The notes under the pieces were generated by a model, which worked only from the letters and a program-made list of their open reading frames with translations, was not told where the DNA came from and made no database searches. DNA of 32,000 bases, from positions 31,402 through 63,401 of the IMG/VR virus record IMGVR_UViG_3300033144_005525. The stretch is one strand, 5' to 3'. This document shows, piece by piece, positions 8,679-29,400 of the stretch. Made by a program: the position numbers and the translations under genes. Origin of the DNA: a virus. Positions within the stretch are counted from its first letter, which is position 1. Each line of letters opens with the position of its first letter.

Positions 8679-8734
8679 AGATCAGGTCCCAACGGTTCGG
8701 GACCAATGACTTCCCGAGCCAATACGAGGTGGTG

Positions 8735-18931: not shown

Positions 18932-19650
18932 TGGCGGCACGAAACAAGATCCCCACCGAAAACGGAGACTACTACCACAAGCACTGGTTGGTATCTCGGG
19001 ATGGGGGATCAGATCAATGGATGTACGTCTGCAAAGATGGACGCCCAGATGAGGGGAAGGGGTATTCATTCTTCTTCATCGACATAAACGACCTACCTGC
19101 CTGCTGCGGTAGGGACGCCACGTACCGCTGGGACGTATCGGTATCCGTAGTGGACATCATCGGGGCGGATAAAGAGACCGTCCAGTCTGCTCTACGCTAC
19201 GTAGGATTCGATGGGGAGCTCGACATGTCCCTCGAATCAGATCGTCTCCACCTGGCGGAGATCCTGTTCGACCATGGAGCCAAATCCCCTGTCTGGAATG
19301 AGGGGGGCGGGAAAGTCACCTTCGATGACTACGGGAACTTGAACGAGTCCTACGATGATAACTGTCCAGAGTTCCGTCGTCTCCGCAAAGAGGCTCGTGA
19401 GTTCTGTGAAGAGACTCTATTCAACGAGCAATCCCGCAACCACCTGCTGGATACCAAGATCGTCAACGCTATCGGGCAAACGGCCCGAGAGTATGCCGGA
19501 GGTACACAAAGCCTCTGGGATACTCTGCGTCGAATCAAACGCCAAGGAGAGAACGCCACCCCGGAACAGCGTCTCGTCCTGAAGATGTACCGAGGAGCCA
19601 AACAAACTCTCGGTGCTGGTCCTGTTCCGGGAGATCTACTGGTTGAATGA
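18922..19650 (+). CDS. hypothetical protein
   Basis: 242-aa ORF with a GTG start overlapping the upstream stop. Confidence 0.55.
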   Translation: MVLVAARNKIPTENGDYYHKHWLVSRDGGSDQWMYVCKDGRPDEGKGYSFFFIDINDLPACCGRDATYRWDVSVSVVDIIGADKETVQSALRYVGFDGELDMSLESDRLHLAEILFDHGAKSPVWNEGGGKVTFDDYGNLNESYDDNCPEFRRLRKEAREFCEETLFNEQSRNHLLDTKIVNAIGQTAREYAGGTQSLWDTLRRIKRQGENATPEQRLVLKMYRGAKQTLGAGPVPGDLLVE

Positions 19651-19832
19651 TGTCTGAGGATCCCATCGGACCCAACAACTGCCCTATACGAGAACGAACG
19701 GCCGATGGAGTTTCTGTCGGCCGTTGCTGGTTCTGGCTGGGTGACAATGAAACCTGCCCTCGGCATGGTGATGTGTCGAAGGAGCTCGAGGAGTTCAAGA
19801 AGACAAGCAAACTCCAAGAGGAGCGTCCTTGA
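19647..19832 (+). CDS. hypothetical Cys-containing protein
   Basis: ATGA overlap with the upstream gene. Confidence 0.45.
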   Translation: MMSEDPIGPNNCPIRERTADGVSVGRCWFWLGDNETCPRHGDVSKELEEFKKTSKLQEERP

Positions 19833-20011
19833 AAATACTCTACATACTGTTGCTACTGGTATCGTGCGGGAAAATGGAATGCGACGATCCATTAACCGCT
19901 AAACGCAAACGATGTGAGGCAAAACTCGAGGCAGCTACCGAGCTGTGCAAGATGACGGGAGACTGCCAACCTCTGAAGAAGCTGATCAACAACCTGGGTT
20001 GTGGGGATTAG
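19829..20011 (+). CDS. putative small lipoprotein
   Basis: LLLLVSC lipobox-like signal. The stop abuts a tRNA. Confidence 0.45.
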   Translation: MKILYILLLLVSCGKMECDDPLTAKRKRCEAKLEAATELCKMTGDCQPLKKLINNLGCGD

Positions 20012-20083
20012 TAGCTCCTGGGGGAATCGAACCCACCGACATCAGGATTAGGAATCCCGAGCCCGGAATCCACCGGAGGAGCC
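20012..20083 (-). tRNA. tRNA-Arg(CCT)
   Basis: Anticodon arm CGGGA-TTCCTAA-TCCTG, T-loop TTCGATT, acceptor GGCTCCT/AGGAGCT. Reduced D-arm CCGG-TGGATT-CCGG. Confidence 0.7.
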
Positions 20084-20320
20084 ATGCCGAAGATGAAGAG
20101 TGATTGGGAGTCGGAGTACAGAGATCCGGCATCCGACGCAGAAGACGTCAGACAGGCAGAGGCTGCAGAGAAACTAACCGCAGCCATCATGCACGAGATC
20201 CAGCTCTGTCGGCAGATGGAGGACGATCAAGATTTCGAGGACTCTGTCTCTAAGGACCACGAAGAGCAGTTCATCGACGATCTCCTAGAGGATTCCGACT
20301 ACGAGCACTACGGGTCGTGA
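20084..20320 (+). CDS. acidic hypothetical protein
   Basis: 78-aa ORF whose ATG directly follows the tRNA. Confidence 0.5.
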   Translation: MPKMKSDWESEYRDPASDAEDVRQAEAAEKLTAAIMHEIQLCRQMEDDQDFEDSVSKDHEEQFIDDLLEDSDYEHYGS

Positions 20321-20514
20321 TCAAACACAAAGGATCCTGCAGGAAGAAGATGGCGAACATCTGCAACTGCATAGTGGATGATGACGGGATGGAGTTTTTC
20401 CAGTGCTGTGGCTGGTACCACAAAGGCTGCAAAGGCCGGATCACCGACGAACACAAACGCCGGAAGTGGAGTCGGCACCTCGCCCGGGGCTCGAACCCGG
20501 CACAGCAAGATTAG
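20317..20514 (+). CDS. Cys-rich hypothetical protein
   Basis: GTGA overlap start. The 3' end runs antisense into tRNA-Arg(TCT). Confidence 0.4.
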   Translation: MIKHKGSCRKKMANICNCIVDDDGMEFFQCCGWYHKGCKGRITDEHKRRKWSRHLARGSNPAQQD

Positions 20515-20544
20515 AAGTCTCGCCTGAGATCCTTCTCGCGAGGC
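20476..20544 (-). tRNA. tRNA-Arg(TCT)
   Basis: Anticodon arm CGAGA-CTTCTAA-TCTTG, T-arm CCGGG-TTCGAGC-CCCGG. Reduced D-arm GAGA-AGGA-TCTC. 69 nt. Confidence 0.7.
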
Positions 20545-20558
20545 AGAAAGAATTAGCA

Positions 20559-21197
20559 ATGGCGAGACCAACAACCCTACCCCCCAAAGACGCCTACAAG
20601 CATGGGACCAGGGCTCGTTACACCGTGGGCTGCAGATGCAAGCCATGTACGAAATCGAACGCAGACGCCTATCACGACCTACAGAAGAAGGCTAAGGAAG
20701 CTGCTCTCAAGCTCAAACCTCGCCGGCCTGTAAAGGTCACTAGGAAATGGACGAAGCCAGACGGAACCACTGGAACCCGTACCTACAAAAACGGGTGCCC
20801 TGGGTTTGATGGCAAATGCCTGACACGGTCTTTTCTCCGCAGCGATTCGGTTGGAGGGATCTGTGGGAAGTGCAGGCTGAGTCTCGTATGGAACGGACTG
20901 GTATCAGCAGAGAAATCCAAGAACCGTTTGCTGAAGTTCTCTGCACAGGGAGTCGGACGACGTGTTATTGGAGCCATCAGTGGAGTGGCTCTAACGGTCC
21001 TGGCCGACGTCAAGTCTGGAAAGAAGAAGCAGGTACGAGCCAACACAGAGAAGGCTATCCTGGCCATCGACTTTTCCGACCTACCTCCCAAGTCTCTGGA
21101 GAAGGTCCGTGCGTTGGATCGTATTGCAGAAGCCCAAGAGCTATCCGATATCGACATACAGAGCAGGATCGGTAAAGCACTTCAGGGGTGTGAGTAG
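20559..21197 (+). CDS. hypothetical protein with HGTxxxYxxGCRCxxC motif
   Basis: Internal ATG (MARPTTLPPKDAYKHGTRARYTVGCRCKPC...). The upstream part of the ORF overlaps a tRNA. Confidence 0.55.
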   Translation: MARPTTLPPKDAYKHGTRARYTVGCRCKPCTKSNADAYHDLQKKAKEAALKLKPRRPVKVTRKWTKPDGTTGTRTYKNGCPGFDGKCLTRSFLRSDSVGGICGKCRLSLVWNGLVSAEKSKNRLLKFSAQGVGRRVIGAISGVALTVLADVKSGKKKQVRANTEKAILAIDFSDLPPKSLEKVRALDRIAEAQELSDIDIQSRIGKALQGCE

Positions 21198-21284
21198 CGG
21201 AAGGAGCGGGAGTCGGACCCGCAAGGCCCTTTCGAGCTCGACTGCTTTCCAAGCAGCTGCCATCACCCATTGGCTTGCCCTTCC
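21198..21284 (-). tRNA. tRNA-Ser(GGA)
   Basis: Class II, 87 nt. Anticodon arm GCTGC-TTGGAAA-GCAGT, long variable arm, T-arm GCGGG-TCCGACT-CCCGC. Confidence 0.8.
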
Positions 21285-21297
21285 AAGGAGGAGAACG

Positions 21298-21537
21298 ATG
21301 AAAACACCGACCATCCAGTCTGTGCACGCGGATCACGATAAGCAACTGAAGAAGATCCTCTTCGAACTCGTTAAGCTGGGAGCGACCAGCTTCTCTCTGA
21401 TCCACGACGAGATTTTGGTGAGTATCCAAGAAGTGACTGAAGAGAACATGCCGAGAGTGCGGGAGCTCCTGCACGAGCTCACCAACAACCGTCTCTCGAA
21501 TACGATTGGGAGGAGAGTAGGAGAGTCGAACTCCTAA
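21298..21537 (+). CDS. hypothetical protein
   Basis: AAGGAGG SD. The 3' end overlaps tRNA-Ser(TGA) antisense. Confidence 0.45.
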   Translation: MKTPTIQSVHADHDKQLKKILFELVKLGATSFSLIHDEILVSIQEVTEENMPRVRELLHELTNNRLSNTIGRRVGESNS

Positions 21538-21596
21538 GGCCTTTCGGCTCGTCTGATTTCAAATCAGGTGCGGTCTCCACATCTGCTTGACTCTCC
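21508..21596 (-). tRNA. tRNA-Ser(TGA)
   Basis: Class II. Anticodon arm CCTGA-TTTGAAA-TCAGA, variable arm with a GAAA loop, T-arm AGGAG-TTCGACT-CTCCT. Confidence 0.8.
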
Positions 21597-21604
21597 AAAT
21601 GCAG

Positions 21605-21636
21605 CTAGGTAGAGAGCACAAGGACTCCCTACCTAG
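21605..21636 (-). terminator. hairpin downstream of HNH gene (weak terminator candidate)
   Basis: 8-bp stem CTAGGTAG/CTACCTAG. Only a short T tract follows on the minus strand. Confidence 0.3.
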
Positions 21637-21640
21637 CCGA

Positions 21641-22168
21641 CTAGGACTCGAGCTCGGACGTCCAGTAGAGATAATCCCTCCAGGCGTCTGGTGCGTTCTC
21701 TCTACTAAGCCGGAGGACCATAACTGGAACCCAGGTAGGTCGGATGGGCTGTGTTCGCAGCTTCATCCTGGCCTGGCTGGGAGTCCGGCCACCCTTCTTC
21801 AAGTTGCACGGTGAGCAGGAGATGACGATGTTCGTCCACTCTGTCCTGCCTCCCTGTGAACGTGGAACGACGTGGTCGTAGGTGCTCTTCTCTATATCGA
21901 GCTTTGTCCCGCAGTACTGGCACCTGTACTTGTCACGAGCACAGATGTTGACTCGAGAGAACTTGATCGGCTTCTTCCTCCTCTTGAACGCCCTGAGTAG
22001 GCGGACAACGGCCGGCATCTTGATAACCAAGGAAGTGGACCGGATGTCCTGGTCGTACTCCTCGATGACTTCGACCTTGCCCAGGAAGAGCAAGGTCAAG
22101 GCTCGCTGCCATGAGACGACTTTGATCGGCTCGTAGCCTTGCGACAGCATGAGTGTCTGCGTTGTCAT
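21641..22168 (-). CDS. HNH endonuclease
   Basis: CQYCG...YDHVVPRSQGGRTEWTNIVISCSPCNLKKG. ATG at 22168 (MTTQTLMLSQGYEPI...) preferred over the upstream start at 22228, which overlaps a tRNA. Confidence 0.8.
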   Translation of the reverse strand: MTTQTLMLSQGYEPIKVVSWQRALTLLFLGKVEVIEEYDQDIRSTSLVIKMPAVVRLLRAFKRRKKPIKFSRVNICARDKYRCQYCGTKLDIEKSTYDHVVPRSQGGRTEWTNIVISCSPCNLKKGGRTPSQARMKLRTQPIRPTWVPVMVLRLSRENAPDAWRDYLYWTSELES

Positions 22169-22203
22169 GTCGCCCCTTTCTTTGGTTAGTTGCCTGAATA
22201 TAG

Positions 22204-22276
22204 TACCAGCGGTGAGATTCGAACTCACACTTGCAGCGTTCTTAGCACTGTGCCTCTGCCGTTGGGCTACGCTGGC
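22204..22276 (-). tRNA. tRNA with Leu-type anticodon AAG, short variable loop
   Basis: Anticodon arm CAGTG-CTAAGAA-CGCTG, T-arm GTGAG-TTCGAAT-CTCAC. G1-U72, A73, 5-nt variable loop. 73 nt. Confidence 0.65.
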
Positions 22277-22288
22277 GTAGGAGAATCA

Positions 22289-22846
22289 ATGAGCAATACG
22301 TTTCTGTCGGCTGATCATCACTTCGGTCACCGTAAATTCATCATAGAGAAAGAGCGTCCCTTCTCCAGTGTCGAGGAAATGGATGAGGCACTGATCCAAC
22401 GCTGGAGAGAGCAGGTCGGACCCAAAGACATCGTGTACTACTTGGGAGATCTATCGTTCTCCAACAAGACCAGAACCCTGGCTATCCTTGACCAGCTCCC
22501 TGGACACATCCACTACATCCTTGGAAACCACGAGAAGTCCATCAAGGGTGAGGTTGCGACTCGGTTCGAGCGGGTGACTCACTACTACGAGATCAGGCAC
22601 CTGGTTGGGGGAGAGAAGGTCAAGATCATCCTGAGCCACTACCCCTTCGAGGTCTGGAACATGTACCACTACGGATCCTGGCATTGCCACGGACACAGTC
22701 ATGGGTCACTGACTCAGACCCGAGACATCCGTCGCATGGACGTCGGTGTGGATACCCGCAGTAACCTCGACCTGTGGCCTCTCGAAGAGGTGGAGGAGAT
22801 CATGAAGGCTCGTGGGATCGATAACGTCGACCACCACACCGAGTAG
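22289..22846 (+). CDS. calcineurin-like metallophosphoesterase
   Basis: Motifs SADHHFGH, YLGDLSF, ILGNHEK and CHGHSHG. ATG at 22289, downstream of the tRNA. Confidence 0.75.
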   Translation: MSNTFLSADHHFGHRKFIIEKERPFSSVEEMDEALIQRWREQVGPKDIVYYLGDLSFSNKTRTLAILDQLPGHIHYILGNHEKSIKGEVATRFERVTHYYEIRHLVGGEKVKIILSHYPFEVWNMYHYGSWHCHGHSHGSLTQTRDIRRMDVGVDTRSNLDLWPLEEVEEIMKARGIDNVDHHTE

Positions 22847-22920
22847 TACCGGCGGTCGGATTCGAACCGACACTGCATGGCTTTTGAAACCAATGAGTCT
22901 TCCAATTGCTCGACGCCGGC
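22847..22920 (-). tRNA. tRNA with Leu-type anticodon CAA, short variable loop
   Basis: Anticodon arm TTGGT-TTCAAAA-GCCAT (one mismatch), T-arm GTCGG-TTCGAAT-CCGAC. G1-U72, A73. Confidence 0.6.
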
Positions 22921-22924
22921 GTAG

Positions 22925-22955
22925 TAGGGGTAGAGGGATTCGAACCCTCACTGAA
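22925..22955 (-). pseudogene. orphan tRNA 3' portion (variable loop + T-arm + acceptor 3' strand)
   Basis: GAGGG-TTCGAAT-CCCTC followed by TACCCCT-A. No D or anticodon arm follows, because the HNH stop codon is 5 nt away. Confidence 0.55.
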
Positions 22956-22959
22956 GGGC

Positions 22960-23433
22960 TTACTTTCTGTTGTTCTTCCCGCAGTACGTCTCTGTCTGAG
23001 AATGGCAGTTGGGGCAGAGCAGCCTGAGGTTGCTGACTCTGTTATCTCTCCTGTTTCCATTCTTGTGGTCCAGGTGTAGAGACAACTCTTCTCCTCCCCA
23101 CTTCAATATTCCACATGCGGAGCACTTGTATTTCAAGACTCCTTCTCTCACTAACCTAGATTTCAGGCTCCCATTATTGGTGTACTTACTGTTCCTGACG
23201 AGAATCTTCTTGAGTGGAATCGTCCCTGGAGGAGATGGGAGGGTTTTGCCCTTGTTATGGCTTTGTCCGAGAAAATGAGATGTATCTAGACCAAGCCTTT
23301 CTATGTGGAGCTGAATACTGTGGTAGTTACCACCAGCCGGGACTAGTCCAATACCCCTTAGCACTTGTGCCAGGGACGTGGCCTTCTTGACCTCCCGTTT
23401 CAGCTCGGGATCTGTCCAAGTTCTATCTGACAT
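22960..23433 (-). CDS. HNH endonuclease
   Basis: LHLDHKNGNRRDNRVSNLRLLCPNCH. Confidence 0.8.
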   Translation of the reverse strand: MSDRTWTDPELKREVKKATSLAQVLRGIGLVPAGGNYHSIQLHIERLGLDTSHFLGQSHNKGKTLPSPPGTIPLKKILVRNSKYTNNGSLKSRLVREGVLKYKCSACGILKWGGEELSLHLDHKNGNRRDNRVSNLRLLCPNCHSQTETYCGKNNRK

Positions 23434-23435
23434 TG

Positions 23436-23509
23436 TGCTGGAGGAGGGAGTCGAACCCTCAACAATCCGAGTTTAAGTCGGACGCCGTTTCCAATTAGGC
23501 TACTCCAGC
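23436..23509 (-). tRNA. tRNA with Leu-type anticodon TAA, short variable loop
   Basis: Anticodon arm TCCGA-CTTAAAC-TCGGA, T-arm GAGGG-TTCGACT-CCCTC, acceptor GCTGGAG/CTCCAGC, A73. Confidence 0.7.
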
Positions 23510-23542
23510 TATACTGAAATGGCAATAGATGAACATTCATAT

Positions 23543-23567
23543 GCCTCTTCCGTTGGGCTACACCCCC
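23543..23567 (-). pseudogene. orphan tRNA 5' portion (acceptor 5' strand + D-arm)
   Basis: GGGGGTG-TA-GCCC-AACGGAAGA-GGC. The D-arm is near-identical to that of tRNA(AAG) at 22204. No anticodon or T arm follows. Confidence 0.55.
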
Positions 23568-23576
23568 AGGAGAACA

Positions 23577-23834
23577 ATGCGATGCCACGAGTGTAAGAAC
23601 TGTTTGGATCTAGAGAAAGTGAGGGCATCTGTTTTCAAAGTCGCCAACCCTCCATTCTCTCATGCATGTCAAGACGTCATAGATCTGTGGAACACAGAGC
23701 TTCAGCGACTACCGTGCCTAGTTCTAGCTGTGGACTGCCATACCTGCCATGCAGATCCCGGAGTACCATGTCGTTGGGGAGAGAGGTTCCACCCCACAAG
23801 AGTAGTACACGCACGTGTTCTCGCTGAGAGTTAG
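23577..23834 (+). CDS. Cys/His-rich zinc-finger-like protein
   Basis: AGGAG SD (MRCHECKNC...CHTCHADPGVPCRWGERFHPTR). Confidence 0.5.
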   Translation: MRCHECKNCLDLEKVRASVFKVANPPFSHACQDVIDLWNTELQRLPCLVLAVDCHTCHADPGVPCRWGERFHPTRVVHARVLAES

Positions 23835-23908
23835 TACCTGCGGTCGGAGTCGAACCGACACTTCACACGTTCTGAGCGTGCTCTCTCTGCCAATTGGAGT
23901 ACGCAGGC
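23835..23908 (-). tRNA. tRNA with Leu-type anticodon CAG, short variable loop
   Basis: Anticodon arm GCACG-CTCAGAA-CGTGT, T-arm GTCGG-TTCGACT-CCGAC. G1-U72, A73. Confidence 0.7.
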
Positions 23909-23913
23909 AATAG

Positions 23914-23982
23914 TGCCACTGGACGGAATTGAACCGCCTCATCGGGTTTCGGAGACCCGAGTTAGGATCCACCTTCAGTGAC
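23914..23982 (-). tRNA. tRNA-Arg(CCG)
   Basis: Anticodon arm CGGGT-CTCCGAA-ACCCG, T-arm GGCGG-TTCAATT-CCGTC. Reduced D-arm AGG-TGGAT-CCT. Confidence 0.7.
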
Positions 23983-24016
23983 AGGAATAATAGTTCGCGA
24001 CCGTTGGGGAAATCCC

Positions 24017-24208
24017 ATGATCGGCAGCAGTGACTACAACACAGCAACTTGGGGTCCAGGGTCTAGTCCCCCTGGTGTACTGCAGTGTCAAAGCTGTTGT
24101 GTCTTCCTCTCCATAAACGGAATCAACGCCAAAGAGAAATACTGCTCTGAGTCGTGTAAACAGAAAGCACCCCCGGACGGAATCGAACCGCCTCACCAAC
24201 GTTCGTAG
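24017..24208 (+). CDS. small Cys-rich protein
   Basis: Internal ATG of ORF 23978-24208 (CQSCC...CSESC). The 3' end is antisense to tRNA-Arg(ACG). Confidence 0.35.
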   Translation: MIGSSDYNTATWGPGSSPPGVLQCQSCCVFLSINGINAKEKYCSESCKQKAPPDGIEPPHQRS

Positions 24209-24237
24209 CGTCGGGCTCAGTATCCACTGTCGGGGGC
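24168..24237 (-). tRNA. tRNA-Arg(ACG)
   Basis: Anticodon arm CGACG-CTACGAA-CGTTG, T-arm GGCGG-TTCGATT-CCGTC. Reduced D-arm CAGT-GGAT-ACTG. Confidence 0.7.
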
Positions 24238-24238
24238 A

Positions 24239-24313
24239 TGGAGCCCAAGGAGGGAGTCGAACCCTCAACCTCACCCTTACCAAGGGCGCGCTCTGCCAGT
24301 GAGCTACATGGGC
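24239..24313 (-). tRNA. tRNA-Thr(GGT)
   Basis: Anticodon arm CGCCC-TTGGTAA-GGGTG, D-arm GCTC-ACTGGCA-GAGC. CCA encoded. Confidence 0.8.
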
Positions 24314-24447
24314 AAGGACACTCTTCGCCGGCGGGCTATGCTCCCGCGTCTCCCTGGTGGTAAAGCGTCGCTGGGCCAGAAGGCGACTCCCACCTGACGG
24401 ATTGCTTCCACGTCTGGGTGTCTTGGCGCAGACCTCAGCAAAGAGTG
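24314..24447 (-). other. structured non-tRNA spacer (~134 nt)
   Basis: The ends pair (CACTCTT / AAGAGTG). Internal hairpins GCGGG-7nt-CCCGC, GTCGC-11nt-GCGAC and GGTGG...CCACC. No T-loop motif. Confidence 0.3.
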
Positions 24448-24522
24448 TGGTGCGGATGGCAGGGATCGAACCTGCTATCTCTTGCGTGTCGAGCAAGCGT
24501 CTTACCTCTTGACCACATCCGC
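24448..24522 (-). tRNA. tRNA-Val(GAC)
   Basis: Anticodon arm CTTGC-TCGACAC-GCAAG (C at position 33), T-arm GCAGG-TTCGATC-CCTGC. CCA encoded. Confidence 0.7.
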
Positions 24523-24525
24523 TTG

Positions 24526-24607
24526 TGGCCACCCCGGTCTCTATCCTCGCGTGTGGCTGGCCGTGTCACAGCCCTTTGGACTCACAACGAGGAGACCGAG
24601 GTGGCGG
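24526..24607 (-). ncRNA. rod-like hairpin ending in CCA (acceptor-minihelix-like)
   Basis: 13-bp terminal helix CCACCTCGGTCTC/GAGACCGGGGTGG. The mismatch is G-U only on the minus strand. The helix is followed by an encoded CCA, and there is no cloverleaf. Confidence 0.35.
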
Positions 24608-24680
24608 CGTCCCTGGGGAGAATCGAACTCCCGTCTCCGGCTTGAGAGGCCGGCAAACTGGGCCACTGTTCTACAGGGAC
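24608..24680 (-). tRNA. tRNA-Glu(CTC)
   Basis: Anticodon arm CCGGC-CTCTCAA-GCCGG, T-arm GGGAG-TTCGATT-CTCCC, G73. Confidence 0.8.
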
Positions 24681-24686
24681 AAGACT

Positions 24687-24762
24687 TGGCGCACCCCCTG
24701 GGAATCGAACCCAGCTCCCTCCGGTTAACAACCGTCCGCAATCACCAGATTGCTAGAGGTAC
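24687..24762 (-). tRNA. tRNA-Asn(GTT), weak anticodon stem
   Basis: Loop TTGTTAA closed by only 3 bp, D-arm GCAA-TCTGGTGA-TTGC. CCA encoded. Confidence 0.6.
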
Positions 24763-24766
24763 TCAG

Positions 24767-24838
24767 CTCCGAGAGAGAGACTCGAACTCCCAACCAGACC
24801 GTTAACAGCGGCCCGCTCTACCATTGAGCTACCTCGGA
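24767..24838 (-). tRNA. tRNA-Asn(GTT)
   Basis: Anticodon arm GGCCG-CTGTTAA-CGGTC, D-arm GCTC-AATGGTA-GAGC, U1-A72. Confidence 0.8.
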
Positions 24839-24842
24839 ATAG

Positions 24843-24991
24843 TGGGCCCCGGATGAATCGAACATCCATCTCCCGCCTTTCGGTTCCTCAAAGGGCTACG
24901 ACCTAGTACTTGAGTTAGCCACCTCTTTTCCGAGTCGCTGGGCTAAACCCCCTCGAGTCAACGGGCGCTCTACCGATTGAGCTAAAGACCC
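24843..24991 (-). tRNA. tRNA gene with a 77-nt structured insertion in the anticodon loop (anticodon undetermined)
   Basis: GGGTCTT-TA-GCTC-AATCGGTA-GAGC-G-CCCGT...[84 nt]...GCGGG-AGAT-GGATG-TTCGATT-CATCC-GGGGCCC-A. All four stems are in register except that 84 nt replace the 7-nt loop. Confidence 0.55.
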
Positions 24992-24995
24992 ATAG

Positions 24996-25030
24996 AGCTG
25001 GTGAGAGGAGTCGAGCCCACCCACCACAAC
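24996..25030 (-). pseudogene. 3' part (nt 39-73) of a split Thr(TGT)-like tRNA
   Basis: GTTGT-GGTGG-GTGGG-CTCGACT-CCTCT-CACCAGC-T. The acceptor strand is perfectly complementary to the 5' part at 25575-25611. Confidence 0.6.
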
Positions 25031-25038
25031 CAATATAG

Positions 25039-25111
25039 AGCCGGAGACAGGAATTGAACCCGCAACCCTCTGCTTACAAAGCAGTAGCTCTACCAATTGA
25101 GCTACTCCGGC
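25039..25111 (-). tRNA. tRNA-Thr(TGT)
   Basis: Anticodon arm ACTGC-TTTGTAA-GCAGA, D-arm GCTC-AATTGGTA-GAGC, T-arm GCGGG-TTCAATT-CCTGT. The 5' 37 nt overlap the HNH 3' end. Confidence 0.8.
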
Positions 25112-25532
25112 GACTTCGTCTTTCGTGAGTACGCTGCCTGTGGCAATTAGCACACACGAGATCGCATTTCTCGATCTCTTCCAGCACCTTCTTCTCGGTT
25201 GAGGACCTCACCAAGGTCGCGACAGCTGCCACTTTCTTACTACCCGGTCTGTGATCGAAATCCATTATCCACGGAGAGTAGGTCCTCCCACAATCCAAGC
25301 ACGGTTTGGTTTTCAGCCCATCTACAAGGACCTTCAACCTAATTCGCAATGCGTTGACGTTCCTTTTGGCTCTGGCTATCTCATGCTTCTTGTTGTTCTT
25401 GTAGTAGATCTTGTAGTAGTTCGCGGTGCATTCCTTACAGATCGAACCCAATCCGCCCCTCTTCTTAGAACAGGTCTTCGAGGTTCGTCTCTTCCCGCAC
25501 TTGCTACATGCCTTCTTCGGGGTGACTGGCAT
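25074..25532 (-). CDS. HNH endonuclease
   Basis: CSKCG...CLDCG...MDFDHRPGSKK...CDLVCANCHRQRTHER. Start is either ATG 25532 or TTG 25550. The stop lies inside tRNA-Thr(TGT). Confidence 0.75.
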   Translation of the reverse strand: MPVTPKKACSKCGKRRTSKTCSKKRGGLGSICKECTANYYKIYYKNNKKHEIARAKRNVNALRIRLKVLVDGLKTKPCLDCGRTYSPWIMDFDHRPGSKKVAAVATLVRSSTEKKVLEEIEKCDLVCANCHRQRTHERRSRRSSSIGRATAL

Positions 25533-25574
25533 CCTCTGAATGTAAACCAAGGAGAGTTGTAAATCAATCCATGT

Positions 25575-25611
25575 TTACAAAACCATTGCGCTACCGTTGC
25601 GCCACACCAGC
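25575..25611 (-). pseudogene. 5' part (nt 1-38) of a split Thr(TGT)-like tRNA
   Basis: GCTGGTG-TG-GCGC-AACGGTA-GCGC-A-ATGGT-TTTGTAA, then an unrelated leader of the HNH gene. Confidence 0.65.
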
Positions 25612-25622
25612 AGGAAAAACAA

Positions 25623-26132
25623 ATGGGAACAAAACCTAGAAACAACAATCCCTACAACATGGTTCCTTTCATACTCAAACCCAAACCTAGTCGTATTCGG
25701 TACTACTTGATACACAAGGACAACTCGGAGAACACCTTAAAGGCAATACGTCGTCGAAACCCTTTGCATCGAGGAATGCTGGAAAACAACTGGAACTGGT
25801 ATCTTGAGTCAAGAGCTAATCATGTCGTAATTGCCTACGACCCAAAATCCAGAGACCCCATCGTTGGTGCATTCAAGTTCGACTTTGGACGTAGATGGCA
25901 CTCAATTAACTCACATGGCACCTGGGTTCGTTCTTCCTTCCAACGCAGGGGGATAGCGAAGACCATGTGGATCACTGCGATCAGGAAGTTGAAGGTAGAG
26001 AGAGTAGAAGTACGAGTCGTATCAGACAGAGGACTCACCCTCATCTCGTCCATCAAGAAGAAGTTCCCACGAGTTCGATTCCAACTATGGGAAGACGGAG
26101 ACAGAAAACTCCGTCATCTGAAGGCTGCCTAG
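25623..26132 (+). CDS. GNAT-family N-acetyltransferase
   Basis: Motif A-like VRSSFQRRGIAKTMW (Q/RxxGxA). AGGAAA before the ATG. Confidence 0.5.
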   Translation: MGTKPRNNNPYNMVPFILKPKPSRIRYYLIHKDNSENTLKAIRRRNPLHRGMLENNWNWYLESRANHVVIAYDPKSRDPIVGAFKFDFGRRWHSINSHGTWVRSSFQRRGIAKTMWITAIRKLKVERVEVRVVSDRGLTLISSIKKKFPRVRFQLWEDGDRKLRHLKAA

Positions 26133-26136
26133 TTAG

Positions 26137-26208
26137 ATCCGGGACTGGGATTCGAACCCAAGATTGGCGGAGTCAAAGACCGCTGTCCTACCGTTGAACG
26201 ACCCCGGA
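26137..26208 (-). tRNA. tRNA-Gln(TTG)
   Basis: Anticodon arm GCGGT-CTTTGAC-TCCGC, U1-A72, T-arm CTGGG-TTCGAAT-CCCAG. Confidence 0.8.
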
Positions 26209-26209
26209 A

Positions 26210-26284
26210 TGGAGCTCGAGGTCAGATTCGAACTGACAACCTTTCCCTTACGAAGGGACTGCGCTGCCATTGCGCCACACGAGC
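26210..26284 (-). tRNA. tRNA-Thr(CGT)
   Basis: Anticodon arm GTCCC-TTCGTAA-GGGAA, D-arm GCGC-AATGGCA-GCGC. CCA encoded. Confidence 0.8.
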
Positions 26285-26285
26285 T

Positions 26286-26359
26286 TGGAGCGGATGAGGA
26301 GATTCGAACTCCTGTCATCAGATTGGAAGTCTGAGGCCCTGCCGTTGGACGACACCCGC
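26286..26359 (-). tRNA. tRNA-Gly(TCC)
   Basis: Anticodon arm TCAGA-CTTCCAA-TCTGA, U73. CCA encoded. Confidence 0.85.
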
Positions 26360-26360
26360 T

Positions 26361-26436
26361 TGGGGTGATCGATGGGATTCGAACCCACATCTCCCGATTC
26401 ACAGTCGGGATGCACTACCGTTGTGCTACGAACACC
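26361..26436 (-). tRNA. tRNA-His(GTG)
   Basis: Anticodon arm TCCCGA-CTGTGAA-TCGGGA. C73 with an encoded G-1. CCA encoded. Confidence 0.85.
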
Positions 26437-26437
26437 A

Positions 26438-26511
26438 TGGTCCCTCCGTGAAGAATCGAACTCCCGTCTGTCGGTTATCAGCCGACGGCTCTACCACTGA
26501 GCTACGAAGGG
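26438..26511 (-). tRNA. tRNA-Ile(GAT)
   Basis: Anticodon arm GTCGG-CTGATAA-CCGAC, D-arm GCTC-AGTGGTA-GAGC. CCA encoded. Confidence 0.85.
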
Positions 26512-26516
26512 GTGTT

Positions 26517-26588
26517 TGGTACCGAGACTCGGAATTGAACCGAGCAGAGCAGCCTTGTAAGAGCCGCCTCCGACCCAGCGGCCTCGGC
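26517..26588 (-). tRNA. tRNA-Val(TAC)
   Basis: Anticodon arm CGGCT-CTTACAA-GGCTG, T-arm CTCGG-TTCAATT-CCGAG. Reduced D-arm CCG-CTGGGT-CGG. CCA encoded. Confidence 0.7.
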
Positions 26589-26592
26589 ATAG

Positions 26593-26664
26593 TCGGAGTA
26601 GGGAGAATCGAACTCCCGATCTCACCGTCCCGAACGGTGCGCGATACCACTTCGCTACACTCCG
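26593..26664 (-). tRNA. tRNA-Pro(CGG)
   Basis: Anticodon arm CACCG-TTCGGGA-CGGTG, C1-G72, D-arm GCGA-AGTGGTA-TCGC. Confidence 0.85.
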
Positions 26665-26756
26665 AATTGTTCCCGAACGGGACAATTCGATTGATCACAG
26701 ACTTGATCTACCCAAGAACACCCCGTACAGAACTGTTTGCTCCCGATCGGGAATAG

Positions 26757-26827
26757 TCGCAACGTTGGGACTCGAACCCAAGCGGTCTCGCTTATGAGAC
26801 GAGCCTCCTAGCCCGTAGGTCGTTGCG
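26757..26827 (-). tRNA. tRNA(CAT), elongator Met or Ile2
   Basis: Anticodon arm CTCGT-CTCATAA-GCGAG, T-arm TTGGG-TTCGAGT-CCCAA. Reduced D-arm CCTA-CGGGC-TAGG. Confidence 0.7.
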
Positions 26828-26833
26828 ATAGAG

Positions 26834-26905
26834 TGGGCCTCCAGGGAATCGGACCCTGCCCTACCGGTTATGAGCCGGCGGCTCTACCCAGTGAGCTAAA
26901 GGCCC
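26834..26905 (-). tRNA. tRNA(CAT), elongator Met or Ile2
   Basis: Anticodon arm GCCGG-CTCATAA-CCGGT, D-arm GCTC-ACTGGGTA-GAGC, T-loop TCCGATT. Confidence 0.8.
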
Positions 26906-26907
26906 GG

Positions 26908-26977
26908 AGCATGTGTCGAGAATCGAACTCGCCCAGCACGGGTTGCAACCGTACACCAGCTCCAGCTGGTCACATGC
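26908..26977 (-). tRNA. tRNA-Cys(GCA)
   Basis: Anticodon arm TACGG-TTGCAAC-CCGTG, U73. Reduced D-arm CAGC-TGGA-GCTG. Confidence 0.75.
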
Positions 26978-26979
26978 AA

Positions 26980-27054
26980 TGGAGCAGGTGATGGGAATCG
27001 AACCCACCTATACGACGTTGGCAACGTCGTGCCTCACCAGTCGGCTTCACCTGC
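26980..27054 (-). tRNA. tRNA-Gly(GCC)
   Basis: Anticodon arm CGACG-TTGCCAA-CGTCG, U73. CCA encoded. Confidence 0.85.
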
Positions 27055-27262
27055 TTGACCCCGCCCCACTCAATAACGGCCCGTCGACCGTATCGGATAG
27101 CGTGGGAATCGGGAACGTCCACTATCAAAACGTCTCGAGCATTGGTACCTTCTGTTTGCGCGTCAGGGAGTTGCCTGTCCCCTGTAACGGTGGTCGACCT
27201 TGGTCGGCGGAGAAGCAAACGGTATCCGACTCCGTCAAAAGCAACAGGCACTTTTACGTTAG
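27055..27262 (-). other. ~208-nt structured spacer without canonical tRNA
   Basis: Long-range GTTTGC/GCAAAC pairing. Hairpins CAGGG-11nt-CCCTG and CGAC-CTTG-GTCG. One degenerate T-arm-like hairpin, GTGG-13nt-CCAC. Confidence 0.3.
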
Positions 27263-27335
27263 TCGGGGTGAGTGGATTCGAACCACCGGCTTCTCGCTTC
27301 CAAGGCGAGATGTCTGACCACTGACTTACACCCCG
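27263..27335 (-). tRNA. tRNA-Pro(TGG)
   Basis: Anticodon arm CTCGC-CTTGGAA-GCGAG, C1-G72, T-arm GGTGG-TTCGAAT-CCACT. Confidence 0.85.
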
Positions 27336-27337
27336 AA

Positions 27338-27409
27338 TGGTGGAGAATGAGGGTAACGCTCCCTCTCGGCCTTCCTTGCAAGGGATGGCTCCGGCCTTCC
27401 GGATTCCCC
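27338..27409 (-). tRNA. tRNA-Ala(TGC)
   Basis: Anticodon arm CATCC-CTTGCAA-GGAAG. G3-U70 present, A73, CCA encoded. Unusual T-loop AGCGTTA and reduced D-arm CCGG-AAGG-CCGG. Confidence 0.7.
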
Positions 27410-27414
27410 GTTAG

Positions 27415-27486
27415 TAGCCCCAGCGAGACTCGAACTCGCTTCCCCGGATTGAAAGCCCAGGATCCTAACCCATGGACGATGGGGCC
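27415..27486 (-). tRNA. tRNA-Glu(TTC)
   Basis: Anticodon arm CTGGG-CTTTCAA-TCCGG, T-arm GCGAG-TTCGAGT-CTCGC. Confidence 0.85.
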
Positions 27487-27487
27487 G

Positions 27488-27573
27488 TGGAGGAGGGCAT
27501 CGGATTCGAACCGAACGCTTTACAGCGCCGTCGACTTAGCAGGACGCGACAGCCCCTGGCTGCATTACCCTCC
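27488..27573 (-). tRNA. class II tRNA, probable Ser(GCT)
   Basis: 86 nt. Variable arm CGCT-GTAA-AGCG. Loop CTGCTAA, but the anticodon stem has only 3/5 pairs. CCA encoded. Confidence 0.55.
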
Positions 27574-27595
27574 AAGGTAAAAGCTTTTATCTTAG

Positions 27596-27680
27596 CGGAA
27601 GCGGGGAGAGTCGGACTCCCAAGGCCGTTAAGCTCGCCTGGTTTCGAACCAGGTGCAGTCGCCAATCTGCTTGCGCTTCC
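27596..27680 (-). tRNA. tRNA-Ser(CGA)
   Basis: Class II, 85 nt. Anticodon arm CCTGG-TTCGAAA-CCAGG, T-arm GGGAG-TCCGACT-CTCCC, G73. Confidence 0.8.
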
Positions 27681-27741
27681 AAAACACGCGGGCGTCCTGC
27701 CATTAGACGATCACTCCTCGTCGGTCAGGGCCGAACATCAA

Positions 27742-27766
27742 CAGAGCTCCTGGGACTCGAACCCAG
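27742..27766 (-). pseudogene. tRNA-like 3' fragment (T-arm + acceptor 3' strand)
   Basis: CTGGG-TTCGAGT-CCCAG-GAGCTCT-G. No matching 5' acceptor or anticodon arm found upstream. Confidence 0.35.
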
Positions 27767-27877
27767 ATTTCCCGCTTCTAAAATGACCTGCCCGCCGCTG
27801 TACGGACGGAGTTCACCTCTCGGTGCCAGACGCACCACGGCTGCGCTGGTTGGTGTTTAACGCCTACAGGTCGGCGG

Positions 27878-27950
27878 CGCCTCCGAAGGGAATCGAACCC
27901 TCCCACACAGCATAGACAGTGCCGCAGCACACCCAGGCGCTCGCGAAGGC
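27878..27950 (-). tRNA. tRNA-Asp(GTC)
   Basis: Anticodon arm CGGCA-CTGTCTA-TGCTG (T at position 37), D-arm AGCG-CCTGGGTG-TGCT, G73. Confidence 0.75.
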
Positions 27951-27959
27951 AAATCGGAG

Positions 27960-28033
27960 TCCCCTCGAGAGGAATTGAACCTCTAACCTTCCGGGTAAGA
28001 ACCGGCTGCGCTTCCTGATTGCGCCACGAAGGG
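27960..28033 (-). tRNA. tRNA-Lys(CTT)
   Basis: Anticodon arm GCCGG-TTCTTAC-CCGGA, D-arm GCGC-AATCAGGAA-GCGC, T-loop TTCAATT. Confidence 0.8.
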
Positions 28034-28040
28034 AAAGAAC

Positions 28041-28319
28041 ATGAACGAATGGAAAGACATATCCACCTACACCAAGAACGATGAAGAGAGGATCCCAAGC
28101 ATTTGGGAACTACGAGTCGGGAAGGTCCGTTTATTGGTCCATCGACACCTACACTACGAAGAGGATCAATGGCTCATGTCTGTGCACGGCGATGTCTCGG
28201 TGACCAATAGCCCTCTCCTGAAGAAGGATGTGGATGAAGCAAAGAGAGAAGCCATACAGGCTATGTTCACCTCTCTGGATAGGATGGCCAGAGAGTTCCG
28301 TGCCTATCTACGCAAGTAG
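28041..28319 (+). CDS. hypothetical protein
   Basis: 92-aa ORF with AAGGGAAAG before the ATG. Confidence 0.5.
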   Translation: MNEWKDISTYTKNDEERIPSIWELRVGKVRLLVHRHLHYEEDQWLMSVHGDVSVTNSPLLKKDVDEAKREAIQAMFTSLDRMAREFRAYLRK

Positions 28320-28386
28320 CAGACAACCGGGGAATCGAACCCCGCTGAGCGGTTTTGGAGACCACTATGATCCCAGATCGTCGTCT
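28320..28386 (-). tRNA. tRNA-Trp(CCA)
   Basis: Anticodon arm GTGGT-CTCCAAA-ACCGC, T-arm CGGGG-TTCGATT-CCCCG, G73. Reduced D-arm GATC-TGG-GATC. 67 nt. Confidence 0.7.
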
Positions 28387-28395
28387 ATATAGGTG

Positions 28396-28457
28396 CCCGC
28401 CTTCCAAGAAGTGCGCAGAGAGAGCATGCCACTCCCCCGCCTTCCCCTCAGTGCGCA
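28396..28457. repeat. two direct copies of CCCGCCTTCC-N5-GTGCGCA, 40 nt apart
   Basis: Copies at 28396-28417 and 28436-28457, in a tRNA-free spacer. Confidence 0.6.
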
Positions 28458-28464
28458 ACACCAG

Positions 28465-28538
28465 TGCCCCCGGGCGGATTTGAACCACCGACGCACGGCT
28501 CTTCAGGCCGTCGCTCTACCAAGCTGAGCTACAAGGGC
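28465..28538 (-). tRNA. tRNA-Phe(GAA)
   Basis: Anticodon arm ACGGC-CTGAAGA-GCCGT, D-arm GCTC-AGCTTGGTA-GAGC. Confidence 0.85.
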
Positions 28539-28654
28539 ATAATTCGGGGCGTGGTTGCGCCCCGTCATCATTCACACTATTCAATTACCACTACTACTAG
28601 CCATGCAGCGCCGTGAACCAGTCAATCAAGATGGCCACACGCACGCCATCGCTA

Positions 28655-28728
28655 TGGTTCGGGATTCAGGATTCGAACCTGAGATGAGCGGGTCAGAGCC
28701 GCTAGTGATACCGTTTCACCAATCCCGA
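28655..28728 (-). tRNA. tRNA-Gln(CTG)
   Basis: Anticodon arm AGCGG-CTCTGAC-CCGCT, U1-A72. CCA encoded. Confidence 0.85.
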
Positions 28729-28731
28729 TCG

Positions 28732-28806
28732 TGGTACCCCCGGAGGGACTCGAACCCACAACCAACCGGTTAAAAGCCGGGTGCTCTACCATTGAGCTAC
28801 GGAGGC
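28732..28806 (-). tRNA. tRNA-Lys(TTT)
   Basis: Anticodon arm CCCGG-CTTTTAA-CCGGT, D-arm GCTC-AATGGTA-GAGC. CCA encoded. Confidence 0.85.
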
Positions 28807-28929
28807 ATGATCGTCATCCTCCGTGCGTTTTCCCTCTCCGTGAGAACAGTCCAGGCAACCGCAGGTGGCGCAGATCTCGCCCCCTCTTGCCCAGCAGCAG
28901 TCCTCACAATTGCATCTCCAGTCACACAT
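28786..28929 (-). CDS. Cys-rich mini-protein (47 aa)
   Basis: AGGAGA SD 6 nt before the ATG (MCDWRCNCEDCCWARGGEICATCGCLDCSHGEGKRTEDDDHASVAQW). 9 Cys in the first 28 aa. The stop lies inside tRNA-Lys(TTT). Confidence 0.45.
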   Translation of the reverse strand: MCDWRCNCEDCCWARGGEICATCGCLDCSHGEGKRTEDDDHASVAQW

Positions 28930-28939
28930 CGTTTTCTCC

Positions 28940-29027
28940 TGGTGGGGGTAGGAGGGTTCGAACCTCCAATGCCCTTAAGGCGCCCGGGTTACAGCCGGGT
29001 ACGGGTACCAACTCCCGCGCCACCCCC
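28940..29027 (-). tRNA. tRNA-Tyr(GTA)
   Basis: Class II, 88 nt. Anticodon arm CCCGG-CTGTAAC-CCGGG, long variable arm. CCA encoded. Confidence 0.85.
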
Positions 29028-29061
29028 AAACCGAAAAACCACCCGAGGTTTCCCTGGGTGG
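29028..29061 (-). terminator. rho-independent terminator
   Basis: Minus-strand CCACCCAGG-GAAA-CCTCGGGTGG followed by TTTTTCGGTTT. Confidence 0.6.
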
Positions 29062-29089
29062 CTTCCTAGCGGTGTATCGATCAGTCCTG

Positions 29090-29251
29090 CTAGGTTGCCA
29101 CCCCTCCATAATTCCAGACCAAGCTCTTCGGGGACGCTATATGCGAGGTCTGGGGCTGCTCTTCGAAACCGAAGCGCACGCACGAATCCAGACCTGCGAG
29201 GGTAATCCTCGCGGCTGGTTTTAGTGTCGTGGCTTGGGATCTGGAAGTCAT
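29090..29251 (-). CDS. 53-aa ORF or structured RNA (ambiguous)
   Basis: AAGGA before the ATG at 29251 (MTSRSQATTLKPAARITLAGLDSC...). The region is also highly self-complementary (GGTCTGG...CCAGACC, GCGAGG-ATTAC-CCTCGC). Confidence 0.3.
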   Translation of the reverse strand: MTSRSQATTLKPAARITLAGLDSCVRFGFEEQPQTSHIASPKSLVWNYGGVAT

Positions 29252-29267
29252 TGTCCTTTTCTCTCGG

Positions 29268-29340
29268 TAGCGGGCGCCGGAGTCCAACCGACTGTCTCTG
29301 GGTTATGAGCCCAACGTGTAAGGCGTTTCACTCGCCCGCA
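29268..29340 (-). tRNA. initiator-like tRNA-fMet(CAT)
   Basis: Anticodon arm TTGGG-CTCATAA-CCCAG with three consecutive G-C pairs closing the loop. Positions 1-72 are unpaired. T-arm GTCGG-TTGGACT-CCGGC. Confidence 0.7.
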
Positions 29341-29347
29341 TGCTTGC

Positions 29348-29377
29348 AGTATAGCAGCCCTCGACAACGTGAGCCAA
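29348..29377 (-). promoter_or_regulatory. sigma70-like promoter facing the tRNA array
   Basis: Minus strand reads TTGGCT-N18-TATACT, with 7 nt to the 5' end of the initiator-like tRNA. Confidence 0.45.
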
Positions 29378-29400
29378 GCAGAAGAGCCTCAACCTAAGAA

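Follow-up and report, generated by a model that had tools for sequence, protein, structure and literature searches.

A broken tRNA-Leu gene enclosing an HNH endonuclease gene and a complete tRNA-Leu(UAA) in a phage tRNA array

How can an endonuclease gene lie inside a tRNA gene that has no intron around it, and what becomes of the tRNA? Selfish endonuclease genes are thought to persist in essential genes by means of self-splicing introns or inteins. The question is raised by a locus in a 32,000-nt stretch of viral DNA (positions 31,402 to 63,401 of IMG/VR record IMGVR_UViG_3300033144_005525), referred to here at its full length as the window. Within a tRNA array of the window, two tRNA-Leu fragments flank a complete tRNA-Leu(UAA) gene and a gene for an HNH endonuclease. 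An earlier note, made from the letters of the DNA alone, had drawn attention to this arrangement and had proposed a search of other phage arrays for it. Our results show that the same architecture occurs in at least five further viral contigs. Below we describe the locus, identify the broken gene, and consider how the arrangement may have arisen.

Anatomy of the split tRNA-Leu gene

The cassette and its flanking fragments are listed in Table 1. On the minus strand, the 5' fragment (23567-23542) reads GGGGGTG-TA-GCCC-AACGGAAG-AGGC-A and the 3' fragment (22959-22925) GCCCT-TCAGT-GAGGG-TTCGAAT-CCCTC-TACCCCT-A. Both had been recognized before as orphan tRNA halves flanking the cassette, and we refined their extents; the stretch originally given for the 3' half, 22949-22925, covers the T-arm onward. 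The acceptor strands of the two fragments pair at all 7 positions with two wobbles, G1-U72 and G7-U66, exactly as first read. The D-arm had been described as nearly identical to that of the neighboring tRNA(AAG), and positions 8-26 indeed match tRNA-Leu(AAG) (22276-22203) at 18 of 19 sites. The combination of G1-U72 with A73, put forward as a signature of the neighboring leucine family, is common to three of the four Leu tRNAs near the broken gene. The complete tRNA(TAA) and the HNH gene between the halves were recovered by independent tools (ARAGORN and Rfam for the tRNA, Pfam HNH_3 and phrog_10822 for the protein). Only the statement that the anticodon arm is missing had to be amended: its 5' strand and loop are gone, but the 3' stem strand GCCCT survives.

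The leader that stands between the 5' fragment and the inner tRNA contains no recognizable anticodon stem. It aligns colinearly with the leader of a related cassette in contig L003 (described below) at only 50% identity.

We found no sign that the halves can be rejoined. ARAGORN, with intron mode on or off, built no functional cloverleaf from the two fragments. There was no match to the Rfam model Intron_gpI at E ≤ 10 in 22900-23600, nor at E ≤ 1 in 19000-30000. Beyond the inner tRNA and the open reading frame (ORF), only ~35 nt of noncoding sequence remain, leaving no room for a ribozyme. Nor does the window offer the bulge-helix-bulge of an archaeal-type split tRNA, because the anticodon-stem 5' strand is absent and no extension helix of that stem can form. 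The HNH gene is the sole ORF of the insert, so there is no integrase gene; the sole repeat is a T-arm similarity of 16/17 nt that is common to many Leu tRNAs, and att-type direct repeats are lacking. An attempt to recover the anticodon by brute-force joining of the halves was discarded, as ARAGORN called a tRNA for many arbitrary joins.

Table 1. Features of the two cassettes and of the surrounding tRNA array (positions in the window)
Feature	Coordinates	Strand	Remarks
5' fragment of broken tRNA, assigned as Leu(UAA), positions 1-26	23542..23567	minus	Acceptor 5' strand, U8-A9, D-arm, A26
Leader, 32 nt	23510..23541	minus	Stands in place of broken-tRNA positions 27-38
Complete cassette tRNA-Leu(UAA)	23436..23509	minus	ARAGORN; Rfam tRNA 66 bits; acceptor GCTGGAG/CTCCAGC, A73
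HNH endonuclease gene, 157 aa	22960..23433	minus	Pfam HNH_3, phrog_10822
3' fragment of broken tRNA, assigned as Leu(UAA), positions 39-73	22925..22959	minus	Anticodon-stem 3' remnant, variable loop, T-arm, acceptor 3' strand, A73
Intact tRNA-Leu(CAA)	22846..22920	minus	ARAGORN; 4 nt downstream of 3' fragment; same neighbor in L003
Leu tRNAs of the array (by anticodon)	22203-22276, 22846-22920, 23436-23509, 23834-23908		74-75 nt each
5' fragment of broken tRNA-Thr(UGU), positions 1-40	25573..25611	minus	Anticodon loop TTTGTAA kept
Second-cassette HNH gene	25074..25550	minus	phrog_2255 at 1.3e-27; family unrelated to first HNH
Complete inner tRNA-Thr(UGU)	25038..25111	minus	ARAGORN; Rfam 65.5 bits; acceptor GCCGGAG/CTCCGGC
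3' fragment of broken tRNA-Thr	24996..25020	minus	Decayed T-arm, acceptor CACCAGC, U73
tRNA-ended element, ~149 nt	24843-24991	minus	Perfect acceptor stem, D-arm, T-arm; ~95 nt foreign middle replaces anticodon arm
Third HNH gene	21641-22168	minus	
Small zinc-finger gene (Pfam Phage_zn_bind_8)	23568-23834	plus	Opposite to array
Noncanonical, apparently complete tRNAs missed by ARAGORN	28320-28386, 24168-24237, 20012-20083, 17079-17160, 16914-16989, 29268-29340	minus	

Could two such fragments face each other by chance? We searched for orphan T-arms and, at a distance from them, orphan 5' strands followed by U8 and a D-stem, such that the two acceptor strands pair 7/7. In the whole 32-kb window, the 22925-23567 pair was the only match. 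Over the loci that we collected from other contigs and genomes (denoted by L numbers), the scan gave 19 matched pairs, about eightfold more than the 2.4 expected from a scrambled-acceptor control (2.4 false pairs per 141 orphan T-arms, or ~0.017 each, in all 130 loci). Most of the other seemingly orphan T-arms of the window belong to complete noncanonical tRNAs that ARAGORN missed, so that half-like fragments are not frequent at random sites; had they been, this would have spoken against the original observation. These data confirmed that the two fragments are halves of one tRNA gene. Scans of viral contigs with exact patterns of the whole split gene, of the 5' half, and of the tRNA-ATG junction returned nothing, and the exact 3'-half pattern returned intact alleles in unrelated phages only.

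Identity of the broken gene

To which tRNA did the halves belong? We searched the 22-nt pattern of the 5' half in 185,579 bacterial and archaeal species, one genome each, and obtained 14 matches. Thirteen are intact tRNA genes of 74-76 nt, all with anticodon UAA, a 5-nt variable loop, the acceptor GGGGGTG/CACCCC(C/T), A73, and a T-arm that is mostly as in the broken gene. The intact tRNA(UAA) of L139, from a bacterial metagenome-assembled genome (MAG), is identical to the 5' stump at 25 of 26 positions and to positions 44-73 of the 3' stump at 26 of 30. The 14th match (L134, a Chthonomonadales MAG) is a tRNA of the same type with a classical group I intron inserted at U34|A35. Among bacterial MAGs, this short type of tRNA(UAA) is present as a single gene in Acidimicrobiales, Coriobacteriia, Chloroflexota, Verrucomicrobiales, and Chthonomonadales (loci L131-L144), and intact tRNAs of the broken type are also present in the viral contigs L005, L006, L008, L010, and L014. 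The earlier note had advised looking for an intact allele, and the intact progenitor type is thus found in both bacterial MAGs and viral contigs. Among 579 collected tRNAs, the best matches to the halves were Leu UAA and Leu CAA.

On these comparisons, the broken gene is a short-variable-loop tRNA-Leu(UAA). The suggestion that it might be the missing leucine isoacceptor with anticodon TAG or GAG was rejected: the 13 intact matches are UAA without exception, and L003 holds intact Leu(TAG) and Leu(GAG) genes beside the same broken gene.

All four Leu tRNAs of the window array share a 5-nt variable loop in place of the long arm that is usual for bacterial tRNA-Leu. They are leucine tRNAs by anticodon, and their charging with leucine is putative.

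Related arrays with and without the cassette

The HNH protein of the cassette has 1521 homologues, the closest of which are encoded in L003 (77% identity) and L004 (72%). L003 is a 141-kb contig from a different sample, and its tRNA array is colinear with that of the window. It carries the same split at ~70% nucleotide identity, with, in this order, the 5' stump, a leader, tRNA-Leu(UAA), the HNH gene, the 3' stump, and tRNA-Leu(CAA). Because the same split is present in this independent assembly, a misassembly is ruled out. Both anticodon-stem strands survive in L003 and pair with each other (ACGGC/GCCGC), and the junction reads TTA...CAAA, which places the break inside the anticodon loop.

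In L004, the orthologue of the cassette tRNA-Leu(UAA) is followed after 2 nt by the HNH ATG; this pair lies between protein-coding genes and has no stumps. The presence of the pair without stumps indicates that tRNA and HNH gene form a unit in their own right. A further array, L018, has much the same gene order; at the corresponding place there is a single, different tRNA-Leu(UAA) (acceptor GGCCTGG) and no such HNH gene.

The HNH endonuclease and the sites of its family

The HNH protein matches PF13392 (HNH_3) with 29.4 bits (cut-off 24.8; 6.1e-07) and phrog_10822 at 6.5e-51 over residues 3-156. It has the expected residue in 20 of the 20 invariant columns of a 25-member alignment, including C104, C107, H123, N135, C140, C143, and H144, so that its catalytic His/Asn and zinc-binding Cys residues are intact. 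Its ATG lies 2 nt past the discriminator base of the inner tRNA, and no Shine-Dalgarno sequence precedes it (23431-23436). A gap of exactly 2 nt between tRNA and ATG was also found in L003 (9999-10003), L004 (1675-1679), and L063 (1462-1467), and one of 1-5 nt in L032 and L065. This spacing suggests that the HNH mRNA is freed nearly leaderless by tRNA processing.

We surveyed 80 viral loci that encode relatives of this protein with 38-55% identity; the ORF could be delimited in 78 of them. A tRNA-Leu(UAA) lies at most ~120 nt from the HNH gene in 31 of the 80 loci. The HNH ORF adjoins or overlaps a tRNA gene in 23/78, and its 3' end overlaps or adjoins a downstream tRNA in 20/78. Some members reside in introns. 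L052 has the HNH ORF in sense orientation inside a group I intron of tRNA-Leu(UAA) at U34|A35 (Rfam Intron_gpI, 50.2 bits). L040 and L061 have it antisense in a split tRNA-Leu(UAA) whose junctions, CTT| ... |AAAA, fit U34|A35, with a sub-threshold Intron_gpI match of 30 bits in L040. None of these three loci contains a further tRNA inside.

Other members share the architecture of the window. In L068, the exons rejoin exactly at T35|G36 to give tRNA-His(GUG), which is also the identity of the inner tRNA; L074 has a broken gene that keeps TAG and an inner Leu(UAG); L098 has a broken Leu(UAA), interrupted at 34|35, and an inner Leu(UAA). L063, with an inner Phe-GAA, repeats the junction of tRNA, two bases, and ATG seen in the window. 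No intron match was obtained in those of the tRNA-enclosing splits that were scanned. A tRNA is thus enclosed in all six ribozyme-less splits (window, L003, L063, L068, L074, and L098) versus none of the three intron-type ones (Fisher p = 0.012), and the anticodons of inner and broken tRNA agree wherever they are readable. The gene orders vary across loci (tRNA then HNH, HNH then tRNA, or HNH antisense), indicating that the design of a split gene plus a spare one arose more than once. No matched split was found in the cultured phages Dorin, GodonK, vB_PaeS_B8, and EcSzw-2, in which a homologous HNH gene is wedged between tRNAs.

Two loci show other relations between the family and tRNA genes. 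The stop codon of the L014 HNH homologue (2959-3565) falls within an intact tRNA-Leu(UAA) of the GGGGGTG type, at its 5' end. In the bacterial contig L015 (2636-3641), an intron-containing, long-arm tRNA-Leu(UAA) is followed by an HNH homologue and, beyond it, by a second copy of the 3' part of this tRNA, from the 3' strand of the anticodon stem through CCATCCC-A. Such a duplicate represents a third type of tRNA scar beside the first HNH family.

A second cassette in a tRNA-Thr gene

The earlier note had seen the architecture repeated at 24996-25611, and we agree: a broken tRNA-Thr(UGU) encloses there an HNH gene and a complete tRNA-Thr(UGU) (Table 1). The acceptor strands of the broken gene, GCTGGTG/CACCAGC, are perfectly complementary and differ from the acceptor of the inner tRNA. 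L003 and L018 each have an uninterrupted tRNA-Thr(UGU) without an HNH gene at the corresponding place of the array, and that of L018 is identical to the Thr stump of the window in its first 15 nt. These two genes are vacant sites for the second cassette. Among 28 viral loci of the second HNH family, we found one doubtful split only; recurrence is therefore shown for the first HNH family only.

The second HNH ORF runs 38 nt into the inner tRNA-Thr(UGU) (25074-25111), and its TAA stop is composed of A36 of the UGU anticodon and the next two bases of the anticodon loop.

Adjacent to this cassette, a tRNA-ended element (24843-24991) has ends that match L018 2774-2912 at 23/26 and 23/25 positions, with one compensatory acceptor change, and a middle that has diverged from that of L018 and differs from it in length. 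It may represent a scar left by an old intron or cassette, or else a tRNA-like RNA.

Origin of the arrangement

We consider it likely that a free-standing homing-endonuclease cassette disrupts its target tRNA gene and supplies the replacement. In the window, a copy of a cassette consisting of the 32-nt leader, tRNA-Leu(UAA), and the HNH gene would have been inserted into a resident tRNA-Leu(UAA) of the short-variable-loop type, in its anticodon region, leaving behind the stumps 1-26 and 39-73, which could no longer yield a decoding tRNA. During a mixed infection, the HNH protein would nick or cut uninterrupted tRNA-Leu(UAA) genes near the anticodon loop. The genome that bears the cassette would serve as the template for repair, its tRNA stumps and neighboring tRNA genes providing homology, and the cassette would thereby be copied into the cut genome. 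The inner tRNA of the same anticodon would take the place of the broken gene and would probably also be a cleavage-resistant allele, so that, given the replacement, invasion should cost the phage no decoding capacity. In the intron-housed relatives at the same site, splicing would keep the tRNA functional; the free-standing form would instead travel with a complete tRNA.

Several observations count against this proposal. Cleavage of tRNA-Leu(UAA) genes by the HNH protein is deduced solely from the locations of its relatives. Phage tRNAs are often dispensable, and the need for compensation is an assumption. The broken gene of the window keeps no anticodon, and the L003 junction TTA...CAAA is one change away from either UAA or CAA. 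No close relative was found in which an uninterrupted gene, of the same type as the broken one, occupies the very position of the first cassette. In L014, an orphan 5' half upstream of the HNH gene and an orphan T-arm downstream of it do not pair together, which shows that some fragments near HNH genes arise in other ways. Finally, the stumps are too well preserved. Between the window and L003, 21 of 26 positions are identical in the 5' stump (81%) and 31 of 37 in the 3' stump with two flanking bases included (84%), together 52 of 63 (83%). By comparison, 4-fold synonymous sites are saturated, with 39% identity in the cassette HNH gene and 45% in the neighboring HNH gene, and tRNAs of the same anticodon have a mean identity of 66%. 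Under neutrality, the binomial probability of the stump identity is 2e-12 to 8e-8, and this conservation does not fit a simple relic. The stump parts next to the junction are the most diverged, a pattern opposite to that expected from selection for recombination arms. The conservation might stem from recent independent invasions, from gene conversion by paralogous Leu tRNAs, from selection that maintains recombination arms, or from a role of the stumps at the RNA level.

Such fragments might also be scars of ordinary array rearrangement, by illegitimate recombination or partial duplication, with the HNH gene as a bystander. The repeat-rich nature of tRNA arrays agrees with this, as do other fragments (27742-27766 in the window, unmatched orphans in L014 and L011) and the tRNA-Leu 3' fragment duplicated beyond the HNH gene of L015. 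We nevertheless regard rearrangement as very improbable. Besides the excess of matched splits over the scrambled control, every examined case (L003, L063, L068, L074, and L098) encloses an HNH gene of the first family, and the breaks lie at or near the anticodon (35|36 in L068, 34|35 in L098 and the intron cases). The enclosed tRNA has the anticodon of the broken one wherever this can be read, and an unrelated HNH family in the window shows the same design. Still less probable, to the point that we give it hardly any credence, is that the halves belong to an intron-containing or split tRNA and are joined by a cryptic ribozyme, by protein-dependent splicing, or in trans. The HNH family does occupy group I introns of tRNA-Leu(UAA), as in L052, and the L068 exons are precise enough to rejoin as tRNA-His. 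In the window, however, the region gave no group I intron signal at the E ≤ 10 cut-off and nothing in the intron mode of ARAGORN, the noncoding remainder is far too short for a ribozyme, and no join can restore an anticodon arm, since the anticodon stem and loop are gone.

The conservation of the stumps invites another explanation, which we consider unlikely but well above the two just discussed: that the stumps also, or instead, work as RNA. Their acceptor strands would pair across ~590 nt; the acceptor helix, D-arm, and T-arm would then make up a tRNA "top half." Conceivably, RNase P, 3'-end enzymes, and perhaps the CCA-adding enzyme or leucyl-tRNA synthetase would recognize this structure, and the transcript of tRNA and HNH gene would be excised with protected ends. 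The dead halves would then, on this doubtful view, be kept by selection as a two-piece tRNA clasp with which the spare tRNA and the endonuclease mRNA are cut out as a unit. In favor are the stump identities of 81% and 84% against 39-50% at neutral sites (p ≤ 8e-8) and the fact that all three acceptor differences between the window and L003 retain pairing. The D-stem changes from C11-G24 to U11-A24 between the two, and the anticodon-stem remnants, which have no role in such a structure, diverge most (1/5 and 3/5 identical). In both genomes, the minimum free energy and centroid folds of the 650-nt unit (RNAfold) close with the acceptor helix by the T hairpin, and the element 24843-24991, likewise with tRNA ends and a foreign middle, has ends conserved in L018. 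Against it, only two genomes are compared, and no acceptor change is compensatory on both sides. The U11-A24 pair of L003 also occurs in intact alleles such as that of L005, and it may predate the split or reflect gene conversion; over positions 8-33 and 39-65, the L003 stumps closely resemble the tRNA-Leu(CAA) next to them. In the second cassette, the T-arm has decayed, and fold predictions of 650 nt are weak evidence (z-scores of -2.6 and -1.3). If the stumps did act in this way, a broken tRNA gene would have become an expression device for a selfish gene, and the processing would also expose the near-leaderless HNH ATG 2 nt past the inner tRNA. In any case, the conserved dead halves pose the question of whether tRNA fragments are reused as RNA-processing signals.

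Relation to known systems

We found no description in the literature of a split tRNA that encloses an endonuclease gene and a tRNA of the same anticodon. The kind of locus, a free-standing homing endonuclease in a phage tRNA array, is already known; the recurrent design of a split target with a spare tRNA sets this one apart. SegB of phage T4 cuts tRNA genes and drives the inheritance of neighboring tRNA genes (PMC2330249), and a block of tRNA-Tyr and segB moves and amplifies as one unit (PMC13096335). The present locus resembles SegB in that an endonuclease gene sits in a phage tRNA array, tRNA genes would be cut, and neighboring tRNAs travel along. It differs in that SegB is a GIY-YIG enzyme encoded between intact tRNA genes and recognizes the T-arm, whereas here an HNH gene lies inside a split tRNA, at the anticodon region, together with a complete tRNA of the same anticodon.

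Group I introns of tRNA-Leu(UAA) with an endonuclease ORF share with the cassette the type of target and the HNH family (L052, L040, L061, and L134), and the insertion site of L003 and L098 is about the same (U34|A35). Here, however, there is no ribozyme or splicing: the interrupted gene is dead, and a second gene would restore the tRNA function. Integrating elements that target tRNA genes through attP likewise land in a tRNA gene and bring sequence that keeps the tRNA function available. In contrast to them, the cassette has neither integrase nor att repeats, carries a whole tRNA gene instead of a matching 3' end, and presumably spreads by break repair, not by site-specific recombination.

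In "fractured genes," a free-standing homing endonuclease gene interrupts a host gene, whose function is restored by split inteins (PMC2677866). In both systems, a gene is cut by an endonuclease gene outside an intron or intein and another device rescues the function; there, the halves are reunited by protein trans-splicing, whereas here they are abandoned and a spare gene is supplied. An HNH gene is also conserved beside long bacterial tRNA arrays, all8564 of Anabaena (PMC8421152). It is similarly linked to a large, horizontally mobile tRNA array, and the third HNH gene of the window is a candidate member of its type. Unlike the cassette genes, it flanks the array, and neither interruption of a tRNA gene nor pairing with a tRNA of the same anticodon has been reported for it.

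Together with at least five independent loci, the window locus points to a third route by which such genes may persist in tRNA genes: to break the target and bring the replacement. The intron route and the spare-gene route, used within one enzyme family on tRNA-Leu(UAA), offer a natural comparison of strategies. More speculatively, invaders of tRNA genes might quite generally carry a spare tRNA where others rely on self-splicing. The locus further suggests a concrete mechanism by which tRNA genes are gained, duplicated, and exchanged in phage arrays, and a reason why these arrays hold many tRNA fragments that annotation tools miss or miscall.

The surrounding array and neighboring genes

The window belongs to a large phage-like genome of 191 kb. 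Its genes include those for ThyX, a phage-type topoisomerase, an amidase, and a PARP-like protein, the last of 489 aa (8645-10114, plus strand) with WGR, PARP regulatory, and PARP catalytic domains. No match to the region was obtained by megablast among 50,697 phage records, and a scan for promoters and terminators returned nothing informative. ARAGORN called 35 tRNA genes in the array, all on the minus strand, among which three HNH genes are located. The further tRNAs that it missed are Trp(CCA), Arg(ACG), Arg(CCU), two with odd anticodon arms near 17 kb, and one detected by Rfam only (37.7 bits); the true size of the array exceeds the 35 called genes. An orphan T-arm at 27742-27766 (minus strand), CTGGG-TTCGAGT-CCCAG-GAGCTCT-G, lies between tRNA-Asp and tRNA-Ser(CGA), and the split scan of the window found no matching 5' strand for it.

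The family of the third HNH gene is very widespread, bacterial chromosomes included, with 70-79% identity over thousands of sequences. In L018 and in the bacterial contig L016, which has EF-Tu and kinase genes, it adjoins the end of colinear tRNA arrays. The gene is probably an all8564-type HNH gene (PMC8421152). Followed as a route to a vacant site of the first cassette, this family yielded the related array L018.

The zinc-finger gene next to the 5' stump has its ATG at 23577, and its ribosome-binding site, AGGAGA, begins at the base that adjoins G1 of the stump. L003 lacks this gene at its stump; instead, a tRNA-Leu(UAG) ends 1 nt before the stump.

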